This document shows positions 4,760 through 45,160 of a stretch of 64,000 bases of DNA, piece after piece. The stretch's first letter is position 1; each line of letters starts with the position of its first letter. The notes beneath the pieces are model-generated. The model was not told the DNA's origin. It made no database searches and worked only from the letters and a program-made list of their open reading frames with translations. Location: positions 1-64,000 of IMG/VR virus record IMGVR_UViG_3300006982_000001; one strand, given 5' to 3'. This DNA comes from a virus. The translations under genes were made by a program, and so were the position numbers.

Positions 4760-4915
4760 ATGACTCGAAAGTCCGAGCTACCCGACGTCCCTGATGGCAA
4801 AGTCAGGGTGATCGACGAGGCAGAGCTCGAGGGAGTCACGCTCACAGAGGACGGCTTCGAGCTGGTAATGGACGTCACCGAGCACCATCTGGAGGACAGA
4901 GATGAGTACGTCTGA
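4760..4915 (+). CDS. Hypothetical acidic protein (51 aa)
   Basis: ATG 4 nt after MTase stop; 3' end overlaps ATG 4902; below ORF-track length cutoff. Confidence 0.4.
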   Translation: MTRKSELPDVPDGKVRVIDEAELEGVTLTEDGFELVMDVTEHHLEDRDEYV

Positions 4916-8686: not shown

Positions 8687-8695
8687 GGGGTCTGA
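8063..8695 (+). CDS. HNH homing endonuclease with N-terminal C2H2 zinc finger
   Basis: CPASGCDYNGTNHGVKVHYGRSH; FCSRECTD; NRLHIHHVKPRR...NLLLLCSTCHNRLD. Confidence 0.85.
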   Translation: MSSCPASGCDYNGTNHGVKVHYGRSHDGTLAKTSVCETCRCEYKIRDGKSISESKYCSLPCKKASEAGCNTLQGWARARTNRCQWCDEWFVAPPAADREFCSRECTDIRRSEEDILSGDNHPRWVSEEADRYWMSQSKVEQVVQRDKQCQMCGLSNEAHKVMVSNRLHIHHVKPRRKCESREEANQLSNLLLLCSTCHNRLDNFIRQTGV

Positions 8696-8696
8696 G

Positions 8697-9164
8697 ATGG
8701 TCGAGAAAGAATACGTCGATTGGGGTGAGGCCGAGTCGGCCGCTGTCCAGATCGCCGAGGCCGCCGAGATGATCGACGACCCGGATCATATCGTAGGAGT
8801 CGCTCGGGGTGGGCTTCCGCTGGCCGTGATGGTCAGTCACGAGCTCGACCTGCCGATGACGTCCCTACGCGCGACACACTACGATGGGAAAGAACGGGAG
8901 GACGAGGTCGAGATCCATACGGATGGACTCGATCAGATCGAGGTGGGCGAAACGGTCTTGCTGGTCGACGACGTCGTCGATAGCGGACGAACGCTCCAGC
9001 GGATCACGGAGCTGTGGGATCGCTACGAGGTAGACCATCGAACCGCTGTCTGGCACGAGAAGCCCGACAGCGAGTTCAAGCCGAACGTCTCTATCTCTCA
9101 GACGGATAGCTGGATCGTCTATCCGTGGGAAGAACCGCGCACGATGAGGAACGCAGAACGATGA
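8697..9164 (+). CDS. Type I phosphoribosyltransferase (purine PRTase-like)
   Basis: PRPP loop VLLVDDVVDSGRTL; GVARGGLPLA; size of Hpt/Gpt-like enzymes. Confidence 0.75.
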   Translation: MVEKEYVDWGEAESAAVQIAEAAEMIDDPDHIVGVARGGLPLAVMVSHELDLPMTSLRATHYDGKEREDEVEIHTDGLDQIEVGETVLLVDDVVDSGRTLQRITELWDRYEVDHRTAVWHEKPDSEFKPNVSISQTDSWIVYPWEEPRTMRNAER

Positions 9165-9796
9165 GTCAAGAACCTATGACACAAGAGCACCCGGAGCAGG
9201 ATCCAGCAGAGTACCACTTCCGTCGCTTTATGGAGGAGATCGGGGTCGACCCGGACGGCGACGAGCACCTCGAGGAGACACCGAAGCGAGTCGTCCGATC
9301 CCGTCGCAACGAGCTGTTCGGTGGGAACGGTGACGATCCGGACGAGCATCTGGAGAAGACGTTCGAAGACGTCGAGCAGTACGAGGGCGACACGGGTGAA
9401 TACAGCGGAGACGCTGGCTGGGTGATCGTCGATAACATTCAGGTGGAGTCGATGTGTGCTCACCACTTCTTGCCCTTCCGCGGAGTCGCTCACGTCGGCT
9501 ACATCCCGAAGGACAAGGTCGTGGGACTGTCGAAGCTCGCGCGGGTGACGGACGGGTACGCTCGCCGGCCGCAGGTCCAAGAGCGGCTGACGAATCAAGT
9601 CGCCAACGCCGTCCACGAGAAGCTCGATCCGCTGGCGACGGCAGTAATCATTCGGTCTGAGCACTTGTGTATGACGTGCAGGGGTGTTCAAGAGCCGAAC
9701 TCCCAGACGTCGACAGTAGCGCTTCGTGGTGCTGTAAGAGAAGACGACCCTATGCGAGAAGAGTTCTACAATATCCTTAAGATGCACGAGAGCTAA
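9161..9796 (+). CDS. folE: GTP cyclohydrolase I (FolE)
   Basis: CAHHFLPFRGVAHVGYIP, GLSKLARV, RRPQVQERLTNQ; ATGA overlap with PRTase stop; last ~50 codons are low-GC. Confidence 0.9.
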   Translation: MSQEPMTQEHPEQDPAEYHFRRFMEEIGVDPDGDEHLEETPKRVVRSRRNELFGGNGDDPDEHLEKTFEDVEQYEGDTGEYSGDAGWVIVDNIQVESMCAHHFLPFRGVAHVGYIPKDKVVGLSKLARVTDGYARRPQVQERLTNQVANAVHEKLDPLATAVIIRSEHLCMTCRGVQEPNSQTSTVALRGAVREDDPMREEFYNILKMHES

Positions 9797-10528
9797 TACT
9801 CTCGTAATGGATTGTTCGAAGTGTGGTAAAAGTGTCCAGGATAGTCAGACTCTGGACGAACATCTCGAGCTTCATTCTTCGGGTGAGGGCGTCGAGTGTC
9901 AGGAGTGTGGGTGGCTATACGGTAGCGAGCGTACTCTGAAGTGCCACCATACCAAAAAGCACGGTAAGGACCCGGAGTGGACTACTTACGAGTGTGAGGA
10001 TTGTGGTGTAGAGGTGGGTCACTACTCTGGGGCTGAGGATCGTGTGAGTCGGTTTTGTAGAAGCTGCTATCAGGAACACAGATCTGCTGATACCATCGAC
10101 GTTGAGTGTGAGACTTGTGGAGCAGTTGAGTGCGTACCAGAGTACCTGAGTAGCAGGCGGTTCTGTAGTCCTCAGTGTCGTGCTGAGTGGGTTTCAGAGG
10201 AGATAGCAGGGAGAGATCATCCCAATTGGAAAGGTGGTGAGAGCCAGTACAGAGGCTCTAATTGGAATGAACAGCGTGAGAAAGCTCTAAATCGTGATGG
10301 ACATAAATGTCGTGTCTGTAGAGACGAAGAGCAGCTTATCGTCCATCATATCGTATCGTTTCATGAGTTCGATGGATTCCGTAAGGCGAACGATCTGGAG
10401 AACCTCGCAACGCTCTGTCGATTGTGCCACGGTTATCTGGAGGGTTGGATCAATCGGGAGGATTTGGGTAGACAGGGTCAGAAGACGGCCTTTGAGTTAG
10501 CTGAAGCTGAAACTCGGAGCACCTCTGT
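9640..10528 (+). mobile_element. Homing cassette: recoded folE 3' end plus ZnF-HNH gene
   Basis: GC drop from ~9640; displaced original folE end follows at 10529. Confidence 0.6.
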
Positions 10529-10532
10529 ATGA
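9807..10532 (+). CDS. HNH homing endonuclease with N-terminal C2H2 zinc finger
   Basis: CSKCGKSVQDSQTLDEHLELH; FCSPQCRAEW; HKCRVCRDEEQLIVHHIV...NLATLCRLCH. Confidence 0.85.
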   Translation: MDCSKCGKSVQDSQTLDEHLELHSSGEGVECQECGWLYGSERTLKCHHTKKHGKDPEWTTYECEDCGVEVGHYSGAEDRVSRFCRSCYQEHRSADTIDVECETCGAVECVPEYLSSRRFCSPQCRAEWVSEEIAGRDHPNWKGGESQYRGSNWNEQREKALNRDGHKCRVCRDEEQLIVHHIVSFHEFDGFRKANDLENLATLCRLCHGYLEGWINREDLGRQGQKTAFELAEAETRSTSV

Positions 10533-10663
10533 GCTGCCGGGGTGCTCAGGAGCCTCACTCGAGTACGTCCACGGCAGCCCTGCGAGGGGCCGTCCGAGAG
10601 GACGACTCGATGAAGCGCGAGTTCTACGACCTGATCCAGATGTCCGACAACGGGCGCGTGTAG
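10529..10663 (+). pseudogene. Displaced original 3' end of folE (44 codons)
   Basis: MSCRGAQEPHSSTSTAALRGAVREDDSMKREFYDLIQMSDNGRV*; 26/41 aa identical to folE residues encoded at 9671..9796; GC-rich codons. Confidence 0.8.
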
Positions 10664-14610: not shown

Positions 14611-14761
14611 GTAGATGGAAGCGGAGAACGGAGAGGAGGACCGGGCACCGACCCGAGAGGGTGGAGGTGTAGGTCGTCTCCTCGTAGGGTTCGACTCCCT
14701 GACCCACCGGGCGTCCTCCCGGTGAGGCGATCTCAGTGACGCGCCGCTTCCGGACCTAAGA
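14611..14761 (+). promoter_or_regulatory. Long structured 5' leader containing a tRNA 3'-half-like element
   Basis: 8-bp closing stem ggaagcgg (14617..14624)/ccgcttcc (14744..14751); T-arm-like taggg-ttcgact-ccctg plus acccacc-g at 14685..14709. Confidence 0.4.
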
Positions 14762-27792: not shown

Positions 27793-28592
27793 ACGTCAAG
27801 ATCATAGAATCCACAGATGAGCCGGAGAAGCTGATCTGCACGGCTGCACGCAACGACTACGAAGACCGCTACGTCGGCGACCTCTCCTTCCACGAAGCGA
27901 TGAGTGGGATCTCCCAGAGCGACGATCTACCGGACGAGGTCAGGCAGGCCTACCACGACGAGCAGGACATCGTCCTCACGCGGAAGATGCACCACCTGAT
28001 CACGGAGACGCTTCTGAACCACGGGCACTTCGGTCCCTTCGAGCACCCGCACGTCACCTTCGCTGTCGAGGGAGTGAGCCGCTCGCTGATGGCACAGATC
28101 ACCCGACACCGTCACGTCAGCTTCGACATCCAATCGATGCGCTACGTCGGGTTCGACGACGCCGTCCCCGAGCCGGGAGAGGCAGTGGTTAGGATCCCCG
28201 GACTCGACGATCCGGGGCTGACCGGGCGGAACGCAGAGTTCGCTGACGGAGAGGAGGAGATGGCCGACGAGGTGATCCTCCGGGAGCGGCGGATGTGCTA
28301 CGAGCGAGCGATCGAGCGGTCGTTCAACGAGTACCAGAACCTGCTGGATCTGGGCGTGCCCGCGCAGGACGCTCGGATGGTGCTGCCGATCGGGACGAAG
28401 GTGAATATGGTGTTCACTCTGAATCTACGGATGTTGATGCACGTCGCCGATATGCGGGCCGCCGCAGACGCTCAGTGGGAGATCCGTGAGATGACCGAGG
28501 ACGTCCTCGATCTCGCTCGGGAGTGGGCACCGATCACGATGCACTTCTACGAGACCGAAATGAAGCACAGAAAGAATAGACTCGCACCTTAG
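27789..28592 (+). CDS. thyX: Flavin-dependent thymidylate synthase ThyX
   Basis: HGHFGPFEH; ThyX motif RHRHVSFDIQSMRY; last codons low-GC. Confidence 0.9.
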   Translation: MNVKIIESTDEPEKLICTAARNDYEDRYVGDLSFHEAMSGISQSDDLPDEVRQAYHDEQDIVLTRKMHHLITETLLNHGHFGPFEHPHVTFAVEGVSRSLMAQITRHRHVSFDIQSMRYVGFDDAVPEPGEAVVRIPGLDDPGLTGRNAEFADGEEEMADEVILRERRMCYERAIERSFNEYQNLLDLGVPAQDARMVLPIGTKVNMVFTLNLRMLMHVADMRAAADAQWEIREMTEDVLDLAREWAPITMHFYETEMKHRKNRLAP

Positions 28593-29100
28593 AAAGATGG
28601 CGGGATATAAAGATAAAAATTGGTTAGAGCGCGAGTACGTCCAGAACAATCGTACTCAAGCTGAAATAGCTGCACAGTTCGGAGTTACTCCCGGAGCTGT
28701 TCGCTACTATACCGAGAAGTACGGATTGACGAAGGCGTGGAAAGATGAGGAGATGCTACGTGCAAAGTACGTTGATGAAGGGCTGGATGTTAGTGACATT
28801 GCTCGGGAGTTTGGGGTAGATGATGGCACGATTCTGTATTGGATGAGAGAGTATAATATTCCCAGAAGACAGGGCGGTGATCATTCACTTCCGTATGCGT
28901 CTCTGTCGATGACCGGTGAGGGCTACGAGATGTGGTGCGACGGTGAAGACCGCGTCTACGTCCATCGCTTGCTCGTGGTAGCAGAGTACGGTTTGGATGC
29001 TTTGTCGGACGACGTCCACCACCATTCAGGCATTCCGTGGGATAATCGCCCGGAGAACGTCAAGCCGATGTCCCGATCAGAGCACCAGAAAGAGCACGCG
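28566..29100 (+). mobile_element. Homing cassette: recoded thyX end plus HTH-HNH gene
   Basis: KNRLAP* encoded twice (28572..28592 low-GC, 29101..29121 GC-rich). Confidence 0.55.
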
Positions 29101-29121
29101 AAGAACCGTCTGGCACCCTGA
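28597..29121 (+). CDS. HNH homing endonuclease with two N-terminal HTH repeats
   Basis: RTQAEIAAQFGVTPGAVRYY / LDVSDIAREFGVDDGTILYW; VHRLLVVAEYG...HHHSGIPWDNRPENVKPMSRSEH; low GC. Confidence 0.8.
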   Translation: MAGYKDKNWLEREYVQNNRTQAEIAAQFGVTPGAVRYYTEKYGLTKAWKDEEMLRAKYVDEGLDVSDIAREFGVDDGTILYWMREYNIPRRQGGDHSLPYASLSMTGEGYEMWCDGEDRVYVHRLLVVAEYGLDALSDDVHHHSGIPWDNRPENVKPMSRSEHQKEHAKNRLAP

Positions 29122-32214: not shown

Positions 32215-32900
32215 GTAGGACACCGCCTTAATCTGGAGTGTGCCAAAGTGTCCCACCTGTGGTGCTGATCGGTTCGACCGTGACCGTGATATGAAGATCC
32301 ACCACAAAGCTGCTCACGACAAATCGATTGCTGAACGTGATCGTCAGACCACTGTCGTAGACTGCGATGAGTGTGGTGAAGAGACAGAGGTTCTGAAGTA
32401 CGTCGATGCCGATCATCGGTTCTGCGGGGAGGAGTGTCGTATGGATTGGTTGTCGAGGAGCAGATCTGGAGATTCTAATCCAGCAAAGGATCCGAAGGTC
32501 AGACAGCAGATCTCAGATACTCTCTCCGGACGTTCGTTATCGTCTGAACACCGGCGGAATATCTCGCAGGCTCAGAGTGGGCGTCAAGTGACGTGGAGTG
32601 ACAAACTGAAAGGGCGTCAACCAGCAGATCCGTTCCCGGAGGGTGACGAAAACCCGTCGTGGTCTGGAGGAGAACCGTATGATCCGGGTCCTCTTACTCA
32701 GAAGCAGAAAGAGCTCATCAGAGAATCGAGGGGACGTATGTGCGAGGAGTGTGGGAAGTTGTCCGAGGAGCAGCCAAAGAAGATGTCTGTTCATCACATC
32801 GATAACGATGTCACCAATAACGATGCAGAAAATCTCAAACTGCTCTGTAATTCGTGCCACGCTAAGGAGCACAACTGATCCGGGACTAACACTCCCGGCT
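32215..32900 (+). mobile_element. Free-standing low-GC ZnF-HNH gene between the HExxH and VWA genes
   Basis: GC drop; no flanking duplication seen. Confidence 0.4.
32240..32878 (+). CDS. HNH homing endonuclease with N-terminal C2H2 zinc finger
   Basis: CPTCGADRFDRDRDMKIHHKAAH; FCGEECRMDW; MSVHHIDNDVTNNDAENLKLLCNSCH; GTG start. Confidence 0.85.
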   Translation: MPKCPTCGADRFDRDRDMKIHHKAAHDKSIAERDRQTTVVDCDECGEETEVLKYVDADHRFCGEECRMDWLSRSRSGDSNPAKDPKVRQQISDTLSGRSLSSEHRRNISQAQSGRQVTWSDKLKGRQPADPFPEGDENPSWSGGEPYDPGPLTQKQKELIRESRGRMCEECGKLSEEQPKKMSVHHIDNDVTNNDAENLKLLCNSCHAKEHN

Positions 32901-32912
32901 GATGTATAGATG

Positions 32913-32924
32913 AATAGATTTATA
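32913..32924 (+). promoter_or_regulatory. BRE/TATA promoter core
   Basis: AATAGATTTATA; 44 nt to ATG 32963. Confidence 0.7.
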
Positions 32925-32962
32925 TTCAAGGGTGCATTAGAGTAGGGTGGAGGTTGGAACGA

Positions 32963-34024
32963 ATGTCACAACTCGTCTGCGAAACCTGCGGGGAGGTCCT
33001 CGTCGAGGACCTGAACGAAGGGGACGCACAAGAAGCACAGAACCGACTCGACGTCGAGGATCACACGCACGACGATTCCGACGACGAGGCAGATGAACAG
33101 TCAGACGATCAGTCCGGTGGGCTGGACGACCGGACGGACGTCGAGGAGATGGAAGACGAGCTCGAGGACGACTTCGAGGACAAGGTCGACGAGGTCACGG
33201 ATCAGGAGCAGGTCGACGACACGACCGACGACGTCTCAGAGTACGTCGGAGCTGCCGAAGCGGAGAACGTGGATCTCGAAGTCCTCGTTGGATCCGACAA
33301 CTCAGTTCCCGGTGCCCGCTGGCAGCAGTGCAGCGAGGACGCCGAACCCGTCGCCGCGATCTTCGAGGACAAGCTCCGACAGATGCGCCGCGCCCGAACG
33401 ACGAAGGGCCAGCAGTCCGGTCGCTTCGACTCCTCGCGGATGATCCAAGCGAGCCGTGGTGACCCGCGAGTCTTCGAGCGGCAGGAGGAGGGCGACGAGG
33501 CTGACTACGAGACGTATATCGTCCTCGACCGTTCGTACTCGATGAAGCACTCGGAGATGGCGCCTGCCGAGAACGCGGTCGCTACCCTGATGATCGCGCT
33601 GGAGGAGGCCGGAGTCAGCACCGAGCTGGTGGACTTCTTCGACAACGATGCGCGCGTCATCAACACCAAGACGCAGAACGCTGAAGCCGAGTGTGGGAAC
33701 ATCCTGCAGGGTGGATCCGCTGCCGACGGTGGCACCCCGCTGGGCGAAGTGATGCAGCTCGTCGCAGAGCGCATCGAGGGCGTCGACGGTCAGCCGTTCG
33801 TGATCGTCGTGACGGACGGTCGCCCCGGTTCCCAGAGCACGTATCAGAGCGCGGTCGACGACCTCGAGGATGAGGACGTCCCCGTACTCGGAGTCACGAT
33901 CGGTGACGGTGCATCGATCGACGATGCGACGATGGATCAGATGTACGATCACCACGTTACGGTGACGGACAATACGACGCTGTCGACGAAGCTGGAGGAG
34001 CTCGCTCGGGGCGTAATGTTCTGA
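32963..34024 (+). CDS. von Willebrand factor A (MIDAS) domain protein with acidic N-terminal region
   Basis: YIVLDRSYSM (DxSxS), DGGTPLGEVM, FVIVVTDGRP. Confidence 0.8.
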   Translation: MSQLVCETCGEVLVEDLNEGDAQEAQNRLDVEDHTHDDSDDEADEQSDDQSGGLDDRTDVEEMEDELEDDFEDKVDEVTDQEQVDDTTDDVSEYVGAAEAENVDLEVLVGSDNSVPGARWQQCSEDAEPVAAIFEDKLRQMRRARTTKGQQSGRFDSSRMIQASRGDPRVFERQEEGDEADYETYIVLDRSYSMKHSEMAPAENAVATLMIALEEAGVSTELVDFFDNDARVINTKTQNAEAECGNILQGGSAADGGTPLGEVMQLVAERIEGVDGQPFVIVVTDGRPGSQSTYQSAVDDLEDEDVPVLGVTIGDGASIDDATMDQMYDHHVTVTDNTTLSTKLEELARGVMF

Positions 34025-37292: not shown

Positions 37293-37366
37293 ACGTGGGT
37301 AGTGTAGTGGTATCACGCCGGACCTTTGCCTGTCCGGCAACGGTGGTTCGAATCCACCCCCGCGTA
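37293..37366 (+). tRNA. Orphan tRNA-like gene, Gln(UUG)-like, with 8-nt anticodon loop CUUUGCCU
   Basis: Acceptor acgtggg/cccgcgt (A1-U72), T-arm ggtgg-ttcgaat-ccacc, anticodon stem ccggac/gtccgg enclosing 8 nt. Confidence 0.6.
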
Positions 37367-37420
37367 CTCCGAGCGCTGCCGAGCGCGATGACACCGAAAT
37401 ACGTGGAGGAAAGACCAACG

Positions 37421-38341
37421 ATGTCAACCACAGAAGACGCGGCAGAAGTCGAGACCGGAGTCGAACAGATCACCGAGGACACGCTAATCCCCATCCGCAT
37501 CGGGAGCGGCCATCGAGGCGGCCTCTGCATCGGGAACGAGGAGCAGTCTCTCACCGCTAACAGCAGCTACACGCGATATCTCGTCTACGCGACGGCGGAG
37601 TCCGTCCTCCGGTGTGAATCGGTCAACAGCACCGACAGAGGCGTCCTCTCGACGCTGATGGACAGCGGACTCGAGTTCGAGACGTACACGGAGGAGGCCG
37701 ACAACCGCTTCGGGCGACCGGCTCTCCAGATTATCGTCGACGAGGGTGCCGAGGCATACGCAGAGCTCCGGGATCAGATCGACGACAACGCCTACCTGCA
37801 CGCGGCCATCAACGAGACGACCGTCTGGGACGCCGCTCAGGAGCTGGACGTCACTCCTGTCCTGCCGATCATCGACGGGGACGGCGAGATCGTGAACACC
37901 ATCGGCGGAGGGTGGGGCGATCCGGATCTGGTGTCCGGGGCGATCGAGCACGAGGGAGACGTCCTCGAGGCAGATCTCCGGGAGATCACTCCGAGTCTGG
38001 AGTTCGTCGTGGAGAATTGGTCGACCCTCAGCGGGTCGCGCTCCGGAATCGTGAACCGTCTTCGTGGGGACGACACGGATCGAGATCAGCTGCTGGCGAT
38101 GGCTCGGGACGACCCGGATGCACAGACCGCGCAGTTCATCGTTAACTCGAGCGACGACGATATCACTGCTCACGGTGTCCGGGAGATCGAGGAGGCTGTC
38201 GTGGCAGACGAGGAGGATCGCTACAAGTCGTTCTGCGGAATGGTGAAGAAGCGGAAGTCGAAGGCGACTGTCCTCGAGCTGGAGATGGACTCCGTCGCTG
38301 ACCGTCTCCTCTGCTCCCTCTGCGCGAAGTCGATGGACTGA
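37421..38341 (+). CDS. Hypothetical 306-aa protein
   Basis: Leader-like GTGGAGGAAAGACCAACG before ATG 37421. Confidence 0.6.
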   Translation: MSTTEDAAEVETGVEQITEDTLIPIRIGSGHRGGLCIGNEEQSLTANSSYTRYLVYATAESVLRCESVNSTDRGVLSTLMDSGLEFETYTEEADNRFGRPALQIIVDEGAEAYAELRDQIDDNAYLHAAINETTVWDAAQELDVTPVLPIIDGDGEIVNTIGGGWGDPDLVSGAIEHEGDVLEADLREITPSLEFVVENWSTLSGSRSGIVNRLRGDDTDRDQLLAMARDDPDAQTAQFIVNSSDDDITAHGVREIEEAVVADEEDRYKSFCGMVKKRKSKATVLELEMDSVADRLLCSLCAKSMD

Positions 38342-38512
38342 CGATGAGATCCGACTCAACGACAATCCGATCGTACTGCAGGATCGCCTGATCAAAGCCT
38401 ACGACGAGGGCACGGTCTTCGTCACTGAGGACGGTCAGGAGATCATCCTCGATGGATCGAACTCCGGGAACTCGACCAGCTCAGGGGTGCCGGACTCGCC
38501 GGGTGGTAACTG

Positions 38513-38776
38513 ATGACGTCCGGTGACGATCACGAGGGTCTGGACCGTCGGAAGTTCCTCGCAGCTGCCGGTGCCACCGGAGCAGTCGCTCTGGCTGGCT
38601 GTGCAGCGGAGGAGGACGGGTCTGACGGGAACGCGACGGATGGGTCGGGTGAGGGCACGAACGCTCTCACGCCGCCCTCAGCGCCGTCTGTCCCGGACGA
38701 CGAGTATTGGGCCTTCGTCGTGGAGTCTCTCGAGTACCAGAACGCGGTTCTGGAGGAGCTGCACGATGGTAGCTAA
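38513..38776 (+). CDS. Tat-signal lipoprotein
   Basis: DRRKFLAAAGATGAVALAGC (twin-Arg + lipobox). Confidence 0.65.
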   Translation: MTSGDDHEGLDRRKFLAAAGATGAVALAGCAAEEDGSDGNATDGSGEGTNALTPPSAPSVPDDEYWAFVVESLEYQNAVLEELHDGS

Positions 38777-38969
38777 ACTCGTCTTCGGTCTGCTGGCCGT
38801 GGCCTTCGTGCTCTCGGTGGCAGTGATCGCCGCGTATCGGTACTTCGACAATCAGGCGGATCGACGTCACGAGAAGGAGATGGTGCGCGAGGAGCACCGT
38901 CACGAGGAGATGTCGGATATCACGACCGACCCGATCGATCGGGAGCTCGAGCGCGAGCGAGAGAAGTAG
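38766..38969 (+). CDS. Small single-TM protein
   Basis: LVFGLLAVAFVLSVAVIAAY then charged tail. Confidence 0.5.
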   Translation: MVAKLVFGLLAVAFVLSVAVIAAYRYFDNQADRRHEKEMVREEHRHEEMSDITTDPIDRELEREREK

Positions 38970-38985
38970 GTCAACTCCGACCATC

Positions 38986-38997
38986 AAGATTTTTATA
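38986..38997 (+). promoter_or_regulatory. TATA promoter of tRNA operon 1
   Basis: AAGATTTTTATA; ~168 nt before first tRNA. Confidence 0.5.
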
Positions 38998-39159
38998 CCC
39001 CCACCTCGTTAGTGGGTAGTAGAACGATGCTGACACGGACACTCACTCGGGGCAGGTTCGGCCCGATAGTTGGGTGTCCAATTAGAGTCCATCCTCAGGG
39101 ATGGCCTCAACACCTCTTTTAGATCCGCTGAAAAGGCGGGTCTGTTCGCTTCACATCGC

Positions 39160-39245
39160 TCCGGCGTAGCATAGTCAGGGGCACATCGCCATAATGCACC
39201 TCCCTCGTAAGGAGGAGAACGGGGGTTCGATTCCCTCCGCCGGAT
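39160..39245 (+). tRNA. tRNA-Thr: tRNA-Thr(CGT) with 21-nt D-loop
   Basis: Acceptor tccggcg/cgccgga; anticodon arm cctcc-ctCGTaa-ggagg; T-arm ggggg-ttcgatt-ccctc; D-stem gcat/atgc encloses 21 nt. Confidence 0.7.
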
Positions 39246-39250
39246 TTCTT

Positions 39251-39324
39251 GGGATCGTAGTGTAGTGGTCTATCACCCCTCGTTTGGGACGAGGAGATCG
39301 CTGGTTCGAATCCAGCCGATCCCA
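39251..39324 (+). tRNA. tRNA-Pro: tRNA-Pro(TGG)
   Basis: gggatcg/cgatccc; cctcg-ttTGGga-cgagg; gctgg-ttcgaat-ccagc. Confidence 0.9.
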
Positions 39325-39328
39325 CTCT

Positions 39329-39401
39329 GCGCGTGGTTGATCCAACGGCAAGACAGGGGCCTTCCAAGCCTCAGATCCCGGTTCGATTCCGGGGCCGCGC
39401 A
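39329..39401 (+). tRNA. tRNA-Gly: tRNA-Gly(TCC)
   Basis: ggggc-ctTCCaa-gcctc; cccgg-ttcgatt-ccggg; acceptor base has mismatches, ends +/-1. Confidence 0.75.
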
Positions 39402-39405
39402 TCGC

Positions 39406-39481
39406 ACTCCCGGAGTCCCCGCTGGCGAGGGACGCTGGACTTTGGATCCAGAGATCGCCGGTTCGATTCCGGCCGGGAGGA
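39406..39481 (+). tRNA. tRNA-Gln: tRNA-Gln(TTG)
   Basis: ctgga-ctTTGga-tccag; gccgg-ttcgatt-ccggc; A1 opposite G72. Confidence 0.8.
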
Positions 39482-39484
39482 TGA

Positions 39485-39559
39485 ACGGGGGTAGCGCAGT
39501 CCGGTCGACGCACTCGGCCGATAACCGAGGTGAGGCAGGTTCGAATCCTGTCCCCCGTA
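39485..39559 (+). tRNA. tRNA-Ile: tRNA-Ile(GAT), C at position 33
   Basis: acggggg/cccccgt; ctcgg-ccGATaa-ccgag; gcagg-ttcgaat-cctgt. Confidence 0.8.
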
Positions 39560-39562
39560 TGA

Positions 39563-39635
39563 TGGTGCGTAGATCAGCTGGTAGATCGTCCCGCTCACAT
39601 CGGGGAGGTCGCAGGTTCGAGTCCTGCCGTACCAA
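39563..39635 (+). tRNA. tRNA-Val: tRNA-Val(CAC)
   Basis: tggtgcg/cgtacca; tcccg-ctCACat-cgggg; gcagg-ttcgagt-cctgc. Confidence 0.9.
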
Positions 39636-39637
39636 TT

Positions 39638-39710
39638 GGGGACGTGGTGTAGCCCGCTATCACACGCGCCTCCAGAGCGCGAGAGAGGGGTTCAAATCCC
39701 TTCGTCCCCA
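39638..39710 (+). tRNA. tRNA-Trp: tRNA-Trp(CCA), intron-less
   Basis: ggggacg/cgtcccc; cgcgc-ctCCAga-gcgcg. Confidence 0.9.
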
Positions 39711-39714
39711 TACG

Positions 39715-39789
39715 GGGCACATAAGCTCAGCTGGACAGAGCACCCGGCTTCTAACCGGGATGTCGGCCGTTCAAATCGGTCTGTGCCCA
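39715..39789 (+). tRNA. tRNA-Arg: tRNA-Arg(TCT)
   Basis: gggcaca/tgtgccc; cccgg-ctTCTaa-ccggg; ggccg-ttcaaat-cggtc. Confidence 0.9.
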
Positions 39790-39795
39790 TCGAGA

Positions 39796-39868
39796 GCCCA
39801 CGTAGCTCAGTGAACAGAGCACCGGTCTTCGAAATTGGGTGTCGCAGGTTTGAATCCTGTCGTGGGCG
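39796..39868 (+). tRNA. tRNA-Arg: tRNA-Arg(TCG)
   Basis: gcccacg/cgtgggc; ccggt-ctTCGaa-attgg; gcagg-tttgaat-cctgt. Confidence 0.85.
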
Positions 39869-39871
39869 TAG

Positions 39872-39944
39872 GTCGAGGTGGCAGAGTGGTGAACGCACCC
39901 GCCTGCAGAGCGGGAAAACGTCGGTTCGATTCCGACCCTCGACT
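39872..39944 (+). tRNA. tRNA-Cys: tRNA-Cys(GCA)
   Basis: gtcgagg/cctcgac; cccgc-ctGCAga-gcggg; gtcgg-ttcgatt-ccgac. Confidence 0.9.
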
Positions 39945-39948
39945 CTCT

Positions 39949-40022
39949 GGGACGGTAGCTCAGCTCGGGAGAGCGCGGCGCTGAAGACGTCGTCTGCCTC
40001 GGTTCAAATCCGAGCCGTCCCA
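39949..40022 (+). tRNA. tRNA-Phe: tRNA-Phe(GAA)
   Basis: gggacgg/ccgtccc; cggcg-ctGAAga-cgtcg; ctcgg-ttcaaat-ccgag. Confidence 0.9.
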
Positions 40023-40024
40023 CT

Positions 40025-40099
40025 GCCGGGATGGTCTAATACAGAAAGATTGGAGGCTTGTGATGCCTCAGACGCGGGTGCTAAGTCCCGCTCCCGGCC
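40025..40099 (+). tRNA. tRNA-His: tRNA-His(GTG) with non-canonical D and T loops
   Basis: gccggga/tcccggc; gaggc-ttGTGat-gcctc; D-loop aatacagaa (no GG); T-loop tgctaagt (8 nt, no TTC); AT-rich. Confidence 0.7.
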
Positions 40100-40129
40100 C
40101 TTATCTATCTGGAGATCGTAGAGCGGACG

Positions 40130-40519
40130 ATGGCTCACCAAGATTTGTTCCACTATCAGGCCCGCATCGAGCGGATCGTAGACGGTGATACATACGACGT
40201 CGTGATCGACATCGGTTTCAAGCTCTCGAAAGAGATCAGGATCCGTCTGAACGACGTCAACACCGCCGAGACCTACGGAGTCAAGAAGGAATCCGAGGAG
40301 TACCAGAATGGGATCGCTCACAAGACCTTCGTCGAGGAGTGGCTCCACAAAGCACAAGCCGACTCCGAGCACGAGTTCCCCGTTCTGATGCGGACTCACA
40401 AGCACGAGAAGGGGAAGTATGGTCGCTACGTGGCCGACGTGGTCCGCCGATCCGATGGCGCTGTCCTCTCCGAGGATCTGCTCGAGGAGTTCGACACGGT
40501 CGAGAAGGTGGACTACTGA
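40130..40519 (+). CDS. Staphylococcal-nuclease (SNase/thermonuclease)-like nuclease
   Basis: RIVDGDTYDVVID...IRIRLNDVNTAETYG...GKYGRYVADV. Confidence 0.75.
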   Translation: MAHQDLFHYQARIERIVDGDTYDVVIDIGFKLSKEIRIRLNDVNTAETYGVKKESEEYQNGIAHKTFVEEWLHKAQADSEHEFPVLMRTHKHEKGKYGRYVADVVRRSDGAVLSEDLLEEFDTVEKVDY

Positions 40520-40529
40520 CCCGCAGACC

Positions 40530-40541
40530 CATAGATTTATA
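40530..40541 (+). promoter_or_regulatory. BRE/TATA promoter of tRNA operon 2
   Basis: CATAGATTTATA; 37 nt before tRNA-Asp. Confidence 0.65.
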
Positions 40542-40572
40542 TTCATCGGTGCTATACGGCAAGACGCGATGA

Positions 40573-40645
40573 GCCGAGCTGGTGTAGTCAGGAAACATCG
40601 TGCCCTGTCACGGCGCGGCCGCGAGTTCAAATCTCGCGCTCGGCG
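40573..40645 (+). tRNA. tRNA-Asp: tRNA-Asp(GTC)
   Basis: gccgagc/gctcggc; gtgcc-ctGTCac-ggcgc; gcgag-ttcaaat-ctcgc. Confidence 0.9.
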
Positions 40646-40648
40646 TGC

Positions 40649-40723
40649 AGCGGGATGGGATAGCCAGATCACTCCGCCGGGTTCATATCCCGGAGAACGC
40701 AGGTTCAAATCCTGCTCCCGCTA
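40649..40723 (+). tRNA. tRNA-iMet: tRNA-Met(CAT), initiator-type
   Basis: A1-U72 (agcggga/tcccgct); anticodon stem ccGGG-ttCATat-CCCgg with three G-C pairs next to loop. Confidence 0.8.
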
Positions 40724-40870
40724 TGCGCCTCTCCGGCGCTCACTAAGTAGGAGTTCGGTTCCAACCACCGGGCAGGTGGCTGTCACACGCTCCTGACCCG
40801 ACCCCCGAATCCCATAACGAGGATAGAAAACGCTCGCAAGGTCCGGACGCTCCCGGACTACAATCCTCGC
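40724..40870 (+). other. 147-nt tRNA-free, hairpin-rich spacer inside tRNA operon 2 (candidate ncRNA or decayed tRNA)
   Basis: gcgcc-tctcc-ggcgc; ccacc-gggca-ggtgg; cgaggat...gtccgg-acgctc-ccggac...atcctcg. Confidence 0.3.
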
Positions 40871-40944
40871 GGGCTCGTAGTTCAGCTCGGTAGAACCCCC
40901 GCTTCGCAAGTGGGAGGCCGCCGGTTCAAGTCCGGCCGAGTCCA
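40871..40944 (+). tRNA. tRNA-Ala: tRNA-Ala(CGC)
   Basis: gggctcg/cgagtcc with G3-U70; cccgc-ttCGCaa-gtggg; gccgg-ttcaagt-ccggc. Confidence 0.9.
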
Positions 40945-40955
40945 TCGCTCATCGC

Positions 40956-41034
40956 GGGCAGGTAGCAAAGGCGATGCGCAGCCTGCACCGGGCCTTTAAC
41001 CCGGCTATCGTGGGTTCAATTCCCACCCTGCCCT
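40956..41034 (+). tRNA. tRNA-Lys: tRNA-Lys(TTT), enlarged D-loop, C33
   Basis: gggcagg/cctgccc; ccggg-ccTTTaa-cccgg; gtggg-ttcaatt-cccac; 79 nt. Confidence 0.7.
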
Positions 41035-41042
41035 CTCAGCGA

Positions 41043-41129
41043 GCTCCCGTGGGGTAGCGGACACACGCTCTCAGGCAATCCTACCGGCCTTTCGAGCCGG
41101 TGACGTCGGTTCGACTCCGACCGGGAGCA
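41043..41129 (+). tRNA. tRNA-Glu: tRNA-Glu(TTC) with 22-nt D-loop
   Basis: gctcccg/cgggagc; ccggc-ctTTCga-gccgg; gtcgg-ttcgact-ccgac; D-stem gggt/atcc encloses 22 nt; 87 nt. Confidence 0.7.
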
Positions 41130-41173
41130 TCAGCGGCAGAGCAAAGAGGACGTCTGTCCTACCGCTCTGGTGA

Positions 41174-41248
41174 CGGCAGGTAGCTCAGAGGCCGCAAGCG
41201 ACGGACTGTAGATCCGTGTCGACGGAGGTTCAATTCCTTCCCTGCCGA
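41174..41248 (+). tRNA. tRNA-Tyr: tRNA-Tyr(GTA)
   Basis: C1-G72 (cggcagg/cctgccg); acgga-ctGTAga-tccgt; ggagg-ttcaatt-ccttc. Confidence 0.85.
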
Positions 41249-41249
41249 T

Positions 41250-41405
41250 TTGACCATCGAGGAGTGTCCTAACTGCGGGGAGCAATCCCCGGAAACGGCT
41301 CAGGCTTTACGAGCTCGGACGCTCCTCTGTTGTTCTTCGACGTGGATCCCCGGACGTGGAGTCGTGATCACTCCGGCGGGTGACGAGCTTCCGTTGGATG
41401 AATAG
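41250..41405 (+). CDS. Possible small CPxCG zinc-finger protein (TTG start, 51 aa)
   Basis: TIEECPNCGEQ...; stop is TAG of the next promoter 12-mer; weak. Confidence 0.25.
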   Translation: MTIEECPNCGEQSPETAQALRARTLLCCSSTWIPGRGVVITPAGDELPLDE

Positions 41406-41412
41406 ATTTATA
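41401..41412 (+). promoter_or_regulatory. BRE/TATA promoter of tRNA operon 3
   Basis: AATAGATTTATA; 103 nt before tRNA-Asn. Confidence 0.65.
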
Positions 41413-41509
41413 CGGTATGCTCCTCTCTGTCCGAGTAGACGATGCCCCACCCGAATCGATCGTCATCGTTGCTATCCTCTCTTCTTAGTCGATAGTGCAA
41501 CGGTGGCGT

Positions 41510-41583
41510 GCCGGGTAGACTCGCTTGGTGCGGGTGCCTGACTGTTAATCAGGATGCGCGAGGTTCGATCCCTCGACCCGGCG
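41510..41583 (+). tRNA. tRNA-Asn: tRNA-Asn(GTT)
   Basis: gccgggt/acccggc; cctga-ctGTTaa-tcagg; cgagg-ttcgatc-cctcg. Confidence 0.9.
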
Positions 41584-41626
41584 TAAACCGTTGCTCTCGT
41601 GTGTAGATAGCAGACTCCTATACAGA

Positions 41627-41711
41627 GGGTGGATGCCCGAGTCAGGTCGAAGGGGTCCGGCTCAGGACCGGATGCTTAGTGTCTTCGCAGGTTCAAATCC
41701 TGCTCCGCCCA
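41627..41711 (+). tRNA. tRNA-Leu: tRNA-Leu(CAG)
   Basis: gggtgga/tccgccc; tccgg-ctCAGga-ccgga; long variable arm; gcagg-ttcaaat-cctgc. Confidence 0.85.
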
Positions 41712-41714
41712 TAG

Positions 41715-41799
41715 GGTGCGCATCGGGGATCTGGCTACCCGACCCGCCTGCTACGCGGGATCCCTCCGTGGACACTCGGTTCGATTCCGAGGCGCACCG
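41715..41799 (+). tRNA. tRNA-Ser: tRNA-Ser(GCT)
   Basis: ggtgcgc/gcgcacc; cccgc-ctGCTac-gcggg; long variable arm; ctcgg-ttcgatt-ccgag. Confidence 0.85.
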
Positions 41800-41803
41800 T
41801 CGG

Positions 41804-41887
41804 GCCGACGTTACCGTAGTCAGGCCAACGGACTCGTTTGGAGGACGAGAGCCGAGAGGTTCCCCGGTTCAAATCCGGGCGTCGGCG
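41804..41887 (+). tRNA. tRNA-Ser: tRNA-Ser(GGA)
   Basis: gccgacg/cgtcggc; ctcgt-ttGGAgg-acgag; long variable arm; cccgg-ttcaaat-ccggg. Confidence 0.85.
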
Positions 41888-41890
41888 TCT

Positions 41891-41975
41891 GGTGGGATGG
41901 CGGAAGTGGACGATCGCGCCTGTCTTGAAAACAGGTACCCGAGAGGGTTTCAGGGTTCGAATCCCTGTCCCACCG
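41891..41975 (+). tRNA. tRNA-Ser: tRNA-Ser(TGA)
   Basis: ggtggga/tcccacc; cctgt-ctTGAaa-acagg; long variable arm; caggg-ttcgaat-ccctg. Confidence 0.85.
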
Positions 41976-41978
41976 CTC

Positions 41979-42080
41979 GCGGGCGTGGCAGAGCTTGGCC
42001 GAACGCGTCTGGCTTAAGACCAGATGAGTGTAGGCTCAACGGGGCAACCCATTACGTAGGTTCGAATCCTACCGCCCGCA
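41979..42080 (+). tRNA. tRNA-Leu: tRNA-Leu(TAA), 102 nt with ~31-nt variable region
   Basis: gcgggcg/cgcccgc; tctgg-ctTAAga-ccaga; gtagg-ttcgaat-cctac; variable region includes ggg-gcaa-ccc hairpin. Confidence 0.65.
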
Positions 42081-42610
42081 TTAACCTCTTTACTCAGTAG
42101 GTCTTAATTTCTTGTATGACGTCTGAATGTCCTACTTGTGGTGAGGGGTTTGGTAGTCAGAAGGCGATGAAGATACACCATAAAGCGAAACACGGGCAAA
42201 GTTTAGCAACAGAGAAATCTACTTGTCTGTCGTGCGATTCCGAGTTTTCCTACTACCCCTCAAATCGATCTGGAGAATTATGTCACGAGTGTAGTGATAA
42301 ACACTCCGATGAGTGGTCTGAACATATGATGAGTCTGAAAGGGCCTGAAGATATAGATGGTCGTTCTTCCGAAGATAGTACCCTACACAAGCGTCGGAGG
42401 ATTCAGCAGATCAAATTGGGGGTAGGGTGTTCTGAGTGTGGATACAACGAACATCCTGCTGCTCTGGATTTCCACCACTTAGAAAACAAAGATCGCAGTA
42501 TTACGAGGTTGGTATCTGGTAACTTCAAATGGAGCAGGGTTCTAACAGAACTTCAAAAGTGCGATGTTCTATGTAGCAATTGTCATAGAGTGATTCATTC
42601 ATCTGCATAG
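42081..42610 (+). mobile_element. ZnF-HNH homing cassette adjoining tRNA-Leu(TAA) (left boundary may lie inside the tRNA)
   Basis: Low GC; followed by an orphan tRNA 3' fragment with nearly the same acceptor strand. Confidence 0.55.
42116..42610 (+). CDS. HNH homing endonuclease with N-terminal C2H2 zinc finger
   Basis: CPTCGEGFGSQKAMKIHHKAKH; LDFHHLENKD...CDVLCSNCH; low GC. Confidence 0.85.
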   Translation: MTSECPTCGEGFGSQKAMKIHHKAKHGQSLATEKSTCLSCDSEFSYYPSNRSGELCHECSDKHSDEWSEHMMSLKGPEDIDGRSSEDSTLHKRRRIQQIKLGVGCSECGYNEHPAALDFHHLENKDRSITRLVSGNFKWSRVLTELQKCDVLCSNCHRVIHSSA

Positions 42611-42642
42611 GTCCCACGCGGGTTCAAATCCCGTCGCCCGTA
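42611..42642 (+). pseudogene. Orphan tRNA 3' fragment (T-arm plus 3' acceptor strand)
   Basis: gcggg-ttcaaat-cccgt then cgcccgt-a; acceptor strand differs by 1 nt from that of tRNA-Leu(TAA) (cgcccgc-a); no 5' half. Confidence 0.7.
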
Positions 42643-42652: not shown

Positions 42653-42913
42653 ATGCCCCGTTCAACTAAGAGGGTTCGTCTCGAAAGTGAGAGTGTGAGG
42701 GTAGACTATTACGATGTAGGAGCACTCATCGTGCTCACGGTCGTCGGGTTTGCGTCGTACGGTATTCCCGGAGCAATAGTAGCGAGCGGCCTCGTCCTCA
42801 CGTTCTTCGCTGCCACTCACGTTCTGATCGTCCGACCGGTCAACGCGGTGGAGGAGCTCGAAGATGAGTTGCTCAAAGAGCCTATCGAGGAGGATGAAGA
42901 AGTAGATGAATAG
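42653..42913 (+). CDS. Membrane protein with acidic tail
   Basis: GALIVLTVVGFASYGIPGAIVASGLVLTFFAATHVLIV. Confidence 0.55.
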   Translation: MPRSTKRVRLESESVRVDYYDVGALIVLTVVGFASYGIPGAIVASGLVLTFFAATHVLIVRPVNAVEELEDELLKEPIEEDEEVDE

Positions 42914-42984: not shown

Positions 42985-43692
42985 ATGAGCGACTCCCAGC
43001 TACCAGACAAAGCCAAGCGCGACGGGCCACGCTTCCGCCGGGTCGAACAGAGACGGCGGGTCGCGCTGGCGAAGTATTACGGGACGGGATCCGGCGAGGA
43101 GTGGGACATCCCCGATATCGCCGACTACCTCCGAGTCTCCGAAGACACCGTCAAAGACTACCTCTACGACACCGAGATGGGCGACCGCGTTCGAGAAATG
43201 TTCCCCGCCGCCGAGGAGCGGATGAAGATGGACATCCTCCTCGAGAAGAAAGAGCGCCTCGACAAGCTCCGGGAACTCTTCGAGGACAAGCTCGACGAGA
43301 AGGAGATCTCCGTCACGGGGCACCGGATCGAGTCGGCGCAGGCTGATATGAACTTCGAGAACGTCGAGGGCGTCAAACCCCCATCGATGGACGGCGTGAG
43401 CAACACGATCAGGCTGGACGCGCCGACCCCTGATCAATTCGAGGAGCGATCTGTCTTCGACGACGAGACCCGTGCGATCCTCAGAGAAATTCGGAAGCAC
43501 GAGAACGACATCCGGGAGATGATGTCCCTCGACGAGCCAGACGAGGTCCGTACCGAGCACCACGGGGACGCGGTCGTGGAGCAGAAGATCTACAACTTCG
43601 ACGGTGCCGACAGTACGCTCCCGGATGCTGAGATCGTCGACGTGGACGCTCAGCCCGTAGACACCGAGTCCGTGGGGCCAACTGATGAGTAG
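42985..43692 (+). CDS. Putative small terminase subunit
   Basis: Immediately upstream of and overlapping TerL; HTH-like IADYLRVSEDTVKDYL; coiled-coil; position-based. Confidence 0.45.
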   Translation: MSDSQLPDKAKRDGPRFRRVEQRRRVALAKYYGTGSGEEWDIPDIADYLRVSEDTVKDYLYDTEMGDRVREMFPAAEERMKMDILLEKKERLDKLRELFEDKLDEKEISVTGHRIESAQADMNFENVEGVKPPSMDGVSNTIRLDAPTPDQFEERSVFDDETRAILREIRKHENDIREMMSLDEPDEVRTEHHGDAVVEQKIYNFDGADSTLPDAEIVDVDAQPVDTESVGPTDE

Positions 43693-45160
43693 TGCCTCGA
43701 GCGGAGGAGTCGACGACAACGTCCGTAAGAAGCCGTTCACGCCTACTCCGACGCAGAAAGAGTTCCTGCGGAATACGAAGAAGCAGGTTCTGATGAGCGG
43801 GTCGTTCGGGGCTGGGAAGTCTCGGATCGGATGTGAGAAGGGCTATATGCTGAATCTGAAGTACCCCGGCAACCGTGGGCTGATCGTCCGGGACCAATAC
43901 ACGGACGTCTGGAGCTCGACGATCGACCAGACGCTCCTCGAGGAGGTAATCCCCGAGAGTCACATCGTCGAGCACAACCAGACGAAGCACAAGATCACTC
44001 ACTTCACGGGGACGCGCGGGCCTGACAAAGAGCCCGTCACCTCAGAGATTCAGTACCACGGGCTGGACGCTGGCGGGTCTGATGGACTACCGACGAAGAT
44101 CGGTGGTCAGCAGTATGGATGGATCTTCGTGGATGAGGGTATCGAGATCTCAAAGTCCGCGTGGGTTCAGCTCCTCGGACGTCTCCGGTACACGGGGAAG
44201 GAGATGAACGGTCGACGCTACGAAGTCCCCTTCCGTCAGATCTTCACGGCGACGAACCCGGCCTCGAAGGCTCATTGGATGTACCAATGGTTCTTCAACT
44301 CGGAGAAGGACGACGCGAAAGCCTACCGGATGACTGCTCACGAGCTGGCGAAGCACGTCCCTACCGTCCCGAACGACTACGTGGAGACGATGGAGTCGAA
44401 CTTCACGGGGATGTACGCCGACCGGTACATTCACGGTGAGTGGGTAGCTGCCAGCGGGCTGGTCTACAACGAGTATGACCCAGAGATCCACCTCCGTCCT
44501 TCGCAGGATCTACCCGGAGAGTGGACGGTGGACTCGAGGATCGATCACGGCGAGTACGAGACCGTCCTCGCTCTCCCACCTGAGGGCTGGCGTGTCTACC
44601 GGAGTATCGACTTTGGGTATCGGAATCCGTTCGTCTGTCAGTGGTGGGCGCGGAATCCTCAGACGGACAAGCACGTAATGTTCCGAGAAGTCTATCGGAC
44701 GGAGGAGCTGATGGAGGATCTGGCCGTGGAGATCAAGCGTCTCACGGACGGGATGCGGATCGAGCAGTCCTACGCAGACCCTGCCTCTGCCGAGGATCGG
44801 GCGACTCTCGCTCGTCACGGTGTGGAGACGACGGAGGCCAAGAAGGACGTCAGCTCAGGTGTTCAGGAGGTCAAGGGCAAGCTCAATACGGCCGACGACG
44901 GGCCGAAGCTGATGTTTATGTCGGGAGCTCTGGCGCACGCTCCTGATCCGAACCTCAACGACGAGGGAGCTCCTGTCAAGACAGTCGACGAGATCCGCGA
45001 TTACCAGTGGAAAGATAATAAGGATGCGCCAGAAAAGGAGGACGACCACGGGATGGACACGATGCGCTACTACGTTCACACGGTATCTCAGGGCAGTACG
45101 TGGACGCAGGATGAGATGGAGCGCCTCGAGTCGATGTTCAACTCGGACGGAGGATTCTGA
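43685..45160 (+). CDS. terL: Terminase large subunit
   Basis: Walker A GSFGAGKS, Walker B WIFVDEG, C-terminal nuclease-type DDHGMDTMRYY. Confidence 0.85.
   Translation: MSSASSGGVDDNVRKKPFTPTPTQKEFLRNTKKQVLMSGSFGAGKSRIGCEKGYMLNLKYPGNRGLIVRDQYTDVWSSTIDQTLLEEVIPESHIVEHNQTKHKITHFTGTRGPDKEPVTSEIQYHGLDAGGSDGLPTKIGGQQYGWIFVDEGIEISKSAWVQLLGRLRYTGKEMNGRRYEVPFRQIFTATNPASKAHWMYQWFFNSEKDDAKAYRMTAHELAKHVPTVPNDYVETMESNFTGMYADRYIHGEWVAASGLVYNEYDPEIHLRPSQDLPGEWTVDSRIDHGEYETVLALPPEGWRVYRSIDFGYRNPFVCQWWARNPQTDKHVMFREVYRTEELMEDLAVEIKRLTDGMRIEQSYADPASAEDRATLARHGVETTEAKKDVSSGVQEVKGKLNTADDGPKLMFMSGALAHAPDPNLNDEGAPVKTVDEIRDYQWKDNKDAPEKEDDHGMDTMRYYVHTVSQGSTWTQDEMERLESMFNSDGGF

Follow-up and report, generated by a model that had tools for sequence, protein, structure and literature searches.

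How does a free-standing endonuclease gene come to lie between a complete transfer RNA (tRNA) gene and a lone tRNA 3′ end? The locus that raises this question is in a 64,000-nt stretch of a virus record (IMG/VR IMGVR_UViG_3300006982_000001; hereafter the window, whose positions serve as coordinates throughout). There, an array of tRNA genes closes with tRNA-Leu(TAA), a zinc-finger/HNH endonuclease gene of low guanine-plus-cytosine content (GC) follows, and an orphan T-arm with a 3′ acceptor strand stands just beyond the stop codon of that gene. With slightly better than even confidence, we favor the explanation that a free-standing HNH homing endonuclease cassette brought a replacement 3′ part for tRNA-Leu(TAA) and displaced the original one. 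The parts of the locus are, in order:

41979..42080, + strand: tRNA-Leu(TAA), intact and colinear, 102 nt, last of the class II block (Rfam RF00005)
42025..42055, + strand: over-long variable region of tRNA-Leu(TAA), 31 nt against 14-15 nt in the four neighboring class II tRNAs
42056..42080, + strand: 3′ end of tRNA-Leu(TAA), with T-arm GTAGG-TTCGAAT-CCTAC, acceptor strand CGCCCGC and discriminator A
42081..42115, + strand: spacer between the tRNA end and the HNH start codon, 35 nt, AT-rich, GC 0.31
42116..42610, + strand: free-standing, intact zinc-finger/HNH endonuclease gene, 164 aa, GC 0.44
42618-42642, + strand: orphan tRNA 3′ piece, with T-stem GCGGG (42618-42622), loop TTCAAAT (42623-42629), stem CCCGT (42630-42634), acceptor strand CGCCCGT (42635-42641) and discriminator A (42642)

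An Orphan tRNA 3′ Piece Beyond the HNH Gene

A preliminary description of the locus had placed tRNA-Leu(TAA) at 41979..42080, with a length of 102 nt and a variable region of about 31 nt. Rfam bears this out (RF00005, 50.8 bits, E = 1.3e-10, model positions 1-71, against a gathering score of 29), and its alignment places an insert of 28-31 nt at the variable region. The 5′ acceptor strand is GCGGGCG, the loop of the anticodon arm (TCTGG-CTTAAGA-CCAGA) is uninterrupted, and the predicted fold contains acceptor, anticodon and T arms; the D-stem has an A12-C23 mismatch and the discriminator is A73. Judged by its cloverleaf, TAA anticodon, long variable arm and A73, the gene is a class II tRNA-Leu, with an unusual variable region of 31 nt. 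Two small hairpins are possible in that region by folding, including GGG-GCAA-CCC, and a C-to-T change at 42050 in the strains L133 and L134 leaves a G-U pair in the GGG/CCC hairpin. ARAGORN, to which the preliminary description had pointed as a check on the locus, made no call for tRNA-Leu(TAA) at 41979-42080, because the variable region is about 31 nt long.

The gene is the last of 25 tRNA genes that run on the + strand from 37293 to 42080 (ARAGORN and Rfam) and that, with anticodon arms read by eye, cover all 20 amino acids. Spacing between tRNAs of the cluster is 2-5 nt, and the final block of the array consists of the class II tRNAs Leu-CAG, Ser-GCT, Ser-GGA, Ser-TGA and Leu-TAA. The window as a whole has a GC of 0.59 and is part of a haloarchaeal tailed virus, whose large terminase gene (43685-45160) has about 70% DNA identity to those of the Haloarcula viruses HCTV-5, HCTV-1 and HVTV-1.

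The lone T-arm and 3′ acceptor strand that had been reported after the HNH stop are indeed present. This orphan begins 7 nt past the stop codon and ends 10 nt ahead of the next gene (42653-42913, 86 aa). Its acceptor strand, CGCCCGT, differs by the single nucleotide previously claimed from the CGCCCGC of tRNA-Leu(TAA), and it pairs at 7/7 positions (one of them G-U) with the 5′ strand GCGGGCG of the intact tRNA, as had also been proposed. Over the whole 25 nt, the orphan and the 3′ end of tRNA-Leu(TAA) are identical at 18 positions (72%), and the changes in the T-stem keep its pairing (GTAGG/CCTAC vs GCGGG/CCCGT).

By itself, a T-arm-like motif is not significant, since about 1.1 are expected by chance per 64 kb on both strands; four further ones lie outside tRNAs in the window. 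When the motif is required to be followed by a strand able to pair at 7/7 positions with the 5′ strand of Leu-TAA, however, the expectation falls to 0.005 per window. Such 7/7 pairing is found in only 2 of 600 ordered cross-pairs among the real tRNAs of the window, and at least 6/7 shared bases in the 3′ acceptor strand in 4 of 300 tRNA pairs. Given the expectation of 0.005 and the rarity among cross-pairs, we conclude that the orphan derives from a real tRNA 3′ end and that its acceptor strand and that of the neighboring tRNA-Leu(TAA) are very probably homologous. When 41979-42024 is placed directly before 42604-42642, ARAGORN accepts the 85-nt product as tRNA-Leu(taa), close in length to the 82-85 nt of the neighboring class II tRNAs; this acceptance adds little because it mostly restates the acceptor match. 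Submitted to Rfam alone, the orphan gave a weak, truncated match of the transfer-messenger RNA type (9.5 bits).

An HNH Gene of Foreign Composition

The gene between the two tRNA 3′ ends has a GC of 0.44, against about 0.60 in its flanks and 0.59-0.60 in the genome. Its 164-aa product matches the PHROG families phrog_2255 (“HNH endonuclease,” E = 4.9e-26) and phrog_3106 (E = 8.5e-18), so that the earlier assignment of 42116..42610 to a low-GC zinc-finger/HNH gene stands, with the N-terminal C2H2-like finger weak in Pfam (sub-threshold). The Pfam HNH domain (PF01844) also falls below threshold (14.6 vs 21.4 bits), and a CxxC...HH...N...CxxCH...H motif is legible at residues 105-161. In tblastn searches with the protein, 510 phage records match, and many of those listed overlap genes annotated as HNH endonuclease. 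By its beta-beta-alpha-metal motif, the product is predicted to be a member of the HNH endonuclease superfamily. A TATA-like CTTTACT in the spacer, about 25 nt upstream of the HNH ATG, is a candidate promoter.

The HNH gene occurs in three near-identical metagenome contigs with 0-1 amino-acid changes, and it is absent from two relatives (L003 and L143, 65-69% amino-acid identity) in which the downstream gene order (membrane-protein, zinc-ribbon, phrog_26615 and terminase genes) is kept. Sporadic presence together with foreign composition is the pattern expected of a homing endonuclease gene, and on both counts 42116-42610 is a probable free-standing member of that class. Distant homologs (P0002-P0004) are on short marine contigs without tRNA context.

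Codon usage offers an observation on the tRNA beside this gene. TTA, the codon read by tRNA-Leu(UAA), accounts for 3 of the 12 Leu codons of the HNH gene (165 codons) and occurs only once in total in four large core genes (about 2600 codons together, 0-1 per gene). This usage suggests that tRNA-Leu(UAA) serves low-GC passenger genes more than viral core genes.

The Same Architecture at folE

A second locus in the same genome has the following parts:

9125-9796, + strand: folE (Pfam GTP_cyclohydroI, E = 7e-59)
9656-9796, + strand: low-GC replacement 3′ part of folE, last 46 codons, 141 nt, GC 0.50
9807-10532, + strand: HNH gene after folE (HNH_9807), GC 0.505, Pfam HNH
10514-10651, + strand: displaced native 3′ part of folE, a recurrence of the last 46 codons, GC 0.63

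Composition clearly marks the upstream copy as foreign and the downstream copy as native: the replacement 3′ part and the HNH gene have a GC of 0.50 and 0.505, against 0.63 in the displaced part and 0.61 in the 5′ part of folE. The two copies share 67% amino-acid and 68% nucleotide identity (tblastn E = 3.9e-18) and are most diverged at third codon positions, as expected of two functional orthologs from diverged genomes. The HNH_9807 open reading frame (ORF) stops within the displaced copy. Taken together, the locus reads unambiguously as a cassette of replacement 3′ part, HNH gene and displaced native 3′ part. Donors of lower GC are plausible, since the virus has relatives with a GC of about 0.50 (L002, L003, L130 and L004).

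At both loci, an intact target gene lies upstream and a partial 3′ copy immediately downstream of the endonuclease gene. The HNH protein of the tRNA locus has an N-terminal zinc-finger region in common with HNH_9807 and with HNH_32240 (E about 1e-8; about 4e-8 for HNH_9807), and the divergence of the two tRNA copies (72% identity) is near that of the folE copies (68%). The folE-like layout put forward in the preliminary description therefore holds as far as the folE cassette itself and the order of parts at the tRNA locus are concerned; the further step of equating the orphan with the original tRNA 3′ end is more tentative, as the search for an HNH-free allele described below found none.

The window contains at least five HNH genes, all within low-GC islands (8063-8695, 9807-10532, 28597-29121, 32240-32878 and 42116-42610). 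Between them, the low-GC islands at 2001-2837, 4001-4800, 8001-8700, 28400-29121 and 32240-33200 contain HNH or zinc-finger ORFs and a DNA methylase (3752-4756); the HNH gene at 28597-29121 lies after thyX, and 2271-2837 is possibly a further HNH/zinc-finger ORF. For the HNH, zinc-finger and methylase ORFs of these other islands, tblastn found no 3′ duplication of the upstream neighbors.

A Proposed Route of Insertion

Under the cassette explanation, the inserted unit would comprise the HNH gene, the AT-rich spacer before it and, ahead of both, a replacement tRNA 3′ part that includes no less than the T-arm and acceptor strand and possibly extends further into the tRNA. The HNH protein, if active as a nuclease, would attack HNH-free copies of the tRNA-Leu gene, cutting within their variable-arm/T-arm region. 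The left break end would be repaired from a donor virus through homology in the tRNA 5′ part or further upstream (by one- or two-sided homology), synthesis would copy the donor tRNA 3′ part and the HNH gene, and the right break end would be kept with the T-arm, acceptor strand and downstream DNA of the recipient. The nuclease gene would thereby come to lie after a colinear tRNA that works and before a displaced tail without function. We infer that 42056..42080 is the replacement 3′ part from the donor, and we propose that 42618..42642 is the displaced original 3′ end of tRNA-Leu(TAA). In later rounds of homing, the displaced tail and the DNA beyond it would act as the right homology arm, and substitutions in the replacement T-arm and acceptor strand, perhaps together with the over-long variable region, would make the resident tRNA gene resistant to further cutting.

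Evidence Against the Cassette and Alternative Explanations

Several results weigh against this explanation. An HNH-free allele was sought by several routes: searches of viral, genome and metagenome contigs with the downstream protein, a profile built from three protein sequences, blastn against phage records, look-ups of exact proteins, and exact-pattern scans in which the 5′ part of the tRNA, the anticodon arm and the replacement 3′ part served as patterns. None was found in these viral, genome, metagenome or phage collections. The search yielded the three near-identical HNH-bearing contigs, in all of which the insertion is already present, and relatives at 65-71% identity whose tRNA clusters are without any Leu tRNA; all matches to the anticodon-arm pattern were chance occurrences in coding sequence.

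The orphan itself is an ambiguous witness. On the question raised in the preliminary description, whether it aligns better to Leu tRNAs than to others, the outcome is mixed: its closest viral counterpart is a tRNA-Leu(TAG) from a different viral contig (22/25, likewise with a G1-U72 geometry), but its exact 23-mer is also the 3′ end of many bacterial tRNA-Gly genes in a scan of genome contigs, so the sequence is generic and uninformative on origin. Its 25 nt are nearer to the tRNA-Ile(GAT) of the window (21/25) than to the adjacent tRNA-Leu(TAA) (18/25). Only 25 nt can be aligned between the two tRNA 3′ copies, and their GC (0.60 vs 0.656) is measured over 25-32 nt of structured RNA, too short to mark a foreign part. 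A similarity between the 14 nt before the orphan T-stem and the variable region was dropped, as 91% of shuffles score as well. The reading of the long variable region as a recombination scar was likewise dropped as evidence: the tRNAs starting at 39160, 40956 and 41043 have large inserts in their D-loops, and the long variable region is therefore not diagnostic.

The near-identical strain L133 adds a further point of this kind. Its positions 2084-2175, compared with 40956-41248 of the window, hold a tRNA-Lys that continues into the final bases and trailer of tRNA-Tyr through a crossover within the shared CCCTGCC acceptor strand, so that the Glu and Tyr tRNAs are lost; its positions 1091-1186, compared with 39872-40022, hold a 96-nt Cys/Phe hybrid tRNA; and it has a 253-aa ORF where the window has about ten tRNAs. 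The tRNA array thus appears to be undergoing reshuffling between strains, and in L133 tRNA fragments and hybrids formed with no nuclease gene at the junction.

These results lend weight to another explanation, which we regard as a tentative, lesser possibility: the orphan would be the stump of a separate tRNA gene (ending in GCGGGTTCAAATCCCGTCGCCCGTA) that formerly followed tRNA-Leu(TAA), either a tandem paralog or another isoacceptor, for instance one like Leu(TAG). Its 5′ two-thirds would have been deleted by the HNH insertion or by tRNA-tRNA recombination, tRNA-Leu(TAA) would be wholly native and nothing would have been replaced. The similarities of the orphan to Leu(TAG) and tRNA-Ile fit such a history, as does the recombination between tRNA 3′ ends that deleted and fused tRNAs in L133. 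In addition, the AT-rich foreign DNA starts exactly where the tRNA ends, at 42081, the tight spacing of the cluster would accommodate a further tRNA, and T-arm-like motifs that may or may not be tRNA remnants occur in other viral tRNA arrays. An unrelated tRNA is an unlikely source, however, because only 0.3% of cross-pairs between real tRNAs fit at 7/7; a paralog would need an extra duplication step; the acceptor stem of Leu-CAG, which is the cluster's other Leu isoacceptor, is quite different; and folE demonstrates that HNH cassettes of this genome carry replacement 3′ parts. With no HNH-free allele found, with the similarities of the orphan to tRNAs elsewhere and with the recombination in L133, a truncated neighboring or paralogous tRNA remains a serious rival to the cassette.

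Other explanations seem much less probable. It is very unlikely that the HNH protein is an immobile, packaging-associated nuclease of the kind found beside terminase genes and that the tRNA-like fragment is incidental. The large terminase gene does begin about 1 kb downstream of the HNH gene, an HNH gene directly follows the terminase gene in the distant relative HCTV-5, and terminase-adjacent HNH proteins reportedly act in phage DNA packaging (a finding attributed to Kala and colleagues in 2014). Against this stand the GC of the HNH gene, 0.44 in a genome of 0.59, its absence from relatives with the same packaging gene order, and its place among the HNH genes of the window, where its nearest paralogs are in non-packaging contexts that include the folE cassette. 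Archaea possess split tRNAs as well as tRNAs with introns at non-canonical positions, and the HNH gene might accordingly lie inside an intron or between split-tRNA halves, the tRNA-Leu 5′ part and the orphan being joined as RNA by the archaeal splicing endonuclease or by a group I intron. The pairing of the 5′ strand with the orphan strand and the ARAGORN call on the joined tRNA-Leu(taa) would agree with this, yet we hold it to be highly improbable: a complete colinear tRNA with a better acceptor stem (G1-C72) is present, its anticodon loop is uninterrupted, a scan for bulge-helix-bulge motifs linking 41995-42090 to 42560-42640 gave a single candidate where about 2.5 would arise by chance (and its position would not yield a tRNA), and Rfam gave no match to a group I or group II intron family at E ≤ 10. 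That the orphan is a chance T-arm-like sequence is scarcely credible, despite the background of such motifs in the window, considering its acceptor match and its position exactly at the end of the tRNA array. Integrase-type insertion was rejected as a candidate: the DNA that separates the two copies encodes the HNH protein alone and no integrase, and the copies are never identical over more than 6 nt in a row, which leaves no core repeat.

Relation to Known Systems

The closest parallels to the cassette are in fungal mitochondria, where atp6 and cob of Endoconidiophora resinifera (PMC6279837) have their parts in matching order: a target gene with a foreign 3′ end, an endonuclease gene and a displaced 3′ pseudogene fragment. 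Pseudogene fragments of atp6 and cox1 have also been described beside free LAGLIDADG genes (PMC7487136). These mitochondrial cassettes need no intron or intein, which holds here too, and the folE locus matches their pattern fully. The hybrid atp6 gene of Allomyces macrogynus, ascribed to work of Paquin and colleagues in 1994, is said to be another such case. The mitochondrial examples differ in having protein-coding targets and GIY-YIG or LAGLIDADG enzymes in eukaryotic organelles, whereas here an HNH enzyme is encoded by an archaeal virus and a tRNA gene is one of the targets. For such a target, the equivalent of a restored “reading frame” would be a base-paired acceptor stem.

Endonuclease genes in viral tRNA arrays have precedents in bacteriophages. 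The 27-bp recognition site of T4 SegB includes the conserved TpsiC stem-loop motif of a tRNA gene (PMC2330249), and HNH or GIY-YIG genes lie within the tRNA clusters of T-even phages and mycobacteriophages (PMC2330249, PMC6409571, PMC13096335). T4 SegB and its kin resemble the present case as free-standing endonuclease genes in a viral tRNA array, with, for SegB, a site region that corresponds to the junction region here, and their homing co-converts neighboring tRNA genes. T5-like phages have endonuclease genes in their tRNA region too. Unlike the HNH gene, however, SegB encodes a GIY-YIG enzyme, lies between complete tRNA genes and belongs to a phage with a bacterial host, and for SegB we found no literature report of a duplicated or displaced tRNA 3′ fragment. 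Proviruses and islands inserted by integrases into tRNA 3′ ends also bring a replacement 3′ part and leave the original at their far end, but such insertion depends on an integrase of the tyrosine or serine type and on a core repeat with identical copies, and the insert here is about 0.56 kb with an HNH gene only. Our literature searches turned up no homing endonuclease cassette that brings along a new 3′ part for a tRNA, and no archaeal virus with this architecture.

The spare-part architecture is thus known for protein genes, and the present locus is most likely an instance of it on a tRNA gene. The general picture of homing would be unchanged, since the architecture is familiar from mitochondria and tRNA-targeting homing endonucleases from T4. 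If the cassette explanation is true, two loci of this virus have an endonuclease gene inside a functional gene without self-splicing, made possible by a copy of the 3′ end that the element itself brings. It would also explain how mosaic tRNA genes and orphan tRNA fragments can arise in the tRNA arrays of viruses, and it would give an archaeal-virus HNH enzyme a testable target, the variable-arm/T-arm region of tRNA-Leu. A wider claim seems doubtful to us, namely that, in haloarchaeal viruses, homing endonuclease genes are routinely accompanied by spare 3′ segments of the genes they target (tRNA 3′ halves included), invade essential protein and RNA genes without intron or intein, and continually yield hybrid tRNAs and free tRNA 3′ halves. 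If it were true, this continual supply of hybrids and free 3′ halves would be a possible natural route to chimeric or split tRNA genes.

Other Features of the tRNA Arrays

Three further tRNAs of the window were missed or mis-assigned by ARAGORN and score 52-57 bits in Rfam (39160-39245, 40956-41034 and 41043-41129). Read by eye, they are Thr(CGT), Lys(TTT) and Glu(TTC); each has an enlarged D-loop (16-22 nt), in which the insert may be a small intron or a tolerated expansion. For the tRNA at 37293-37366 (55.7 bits), ARAGORN gives a four-base anticodon (ttgc), and the loop is apparently 8 nt (CTTTGCCT) on a 7-bp stem.

Another viral contig, L140 (IMGVR_UViG_3300025354_000003; GC 0.44), packs about 35 tRNAs into 10 kb; apart from the called tRNAs it has several T-arm-like motifs (among them those at 5554, 5772, 5853, 6595, 10014 and 10097), which may be unrecognized or degenerate tRNAs. 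Within the window, a T-arm-like hairpin outside any tRNA lies at 14685-14710 (TAGGG-TTCGACT-CCCTG, with the flanks GGTGG...CCACC); it may be a chance occurrence, of which about one is expected per window, or a tRNA-like remnant.

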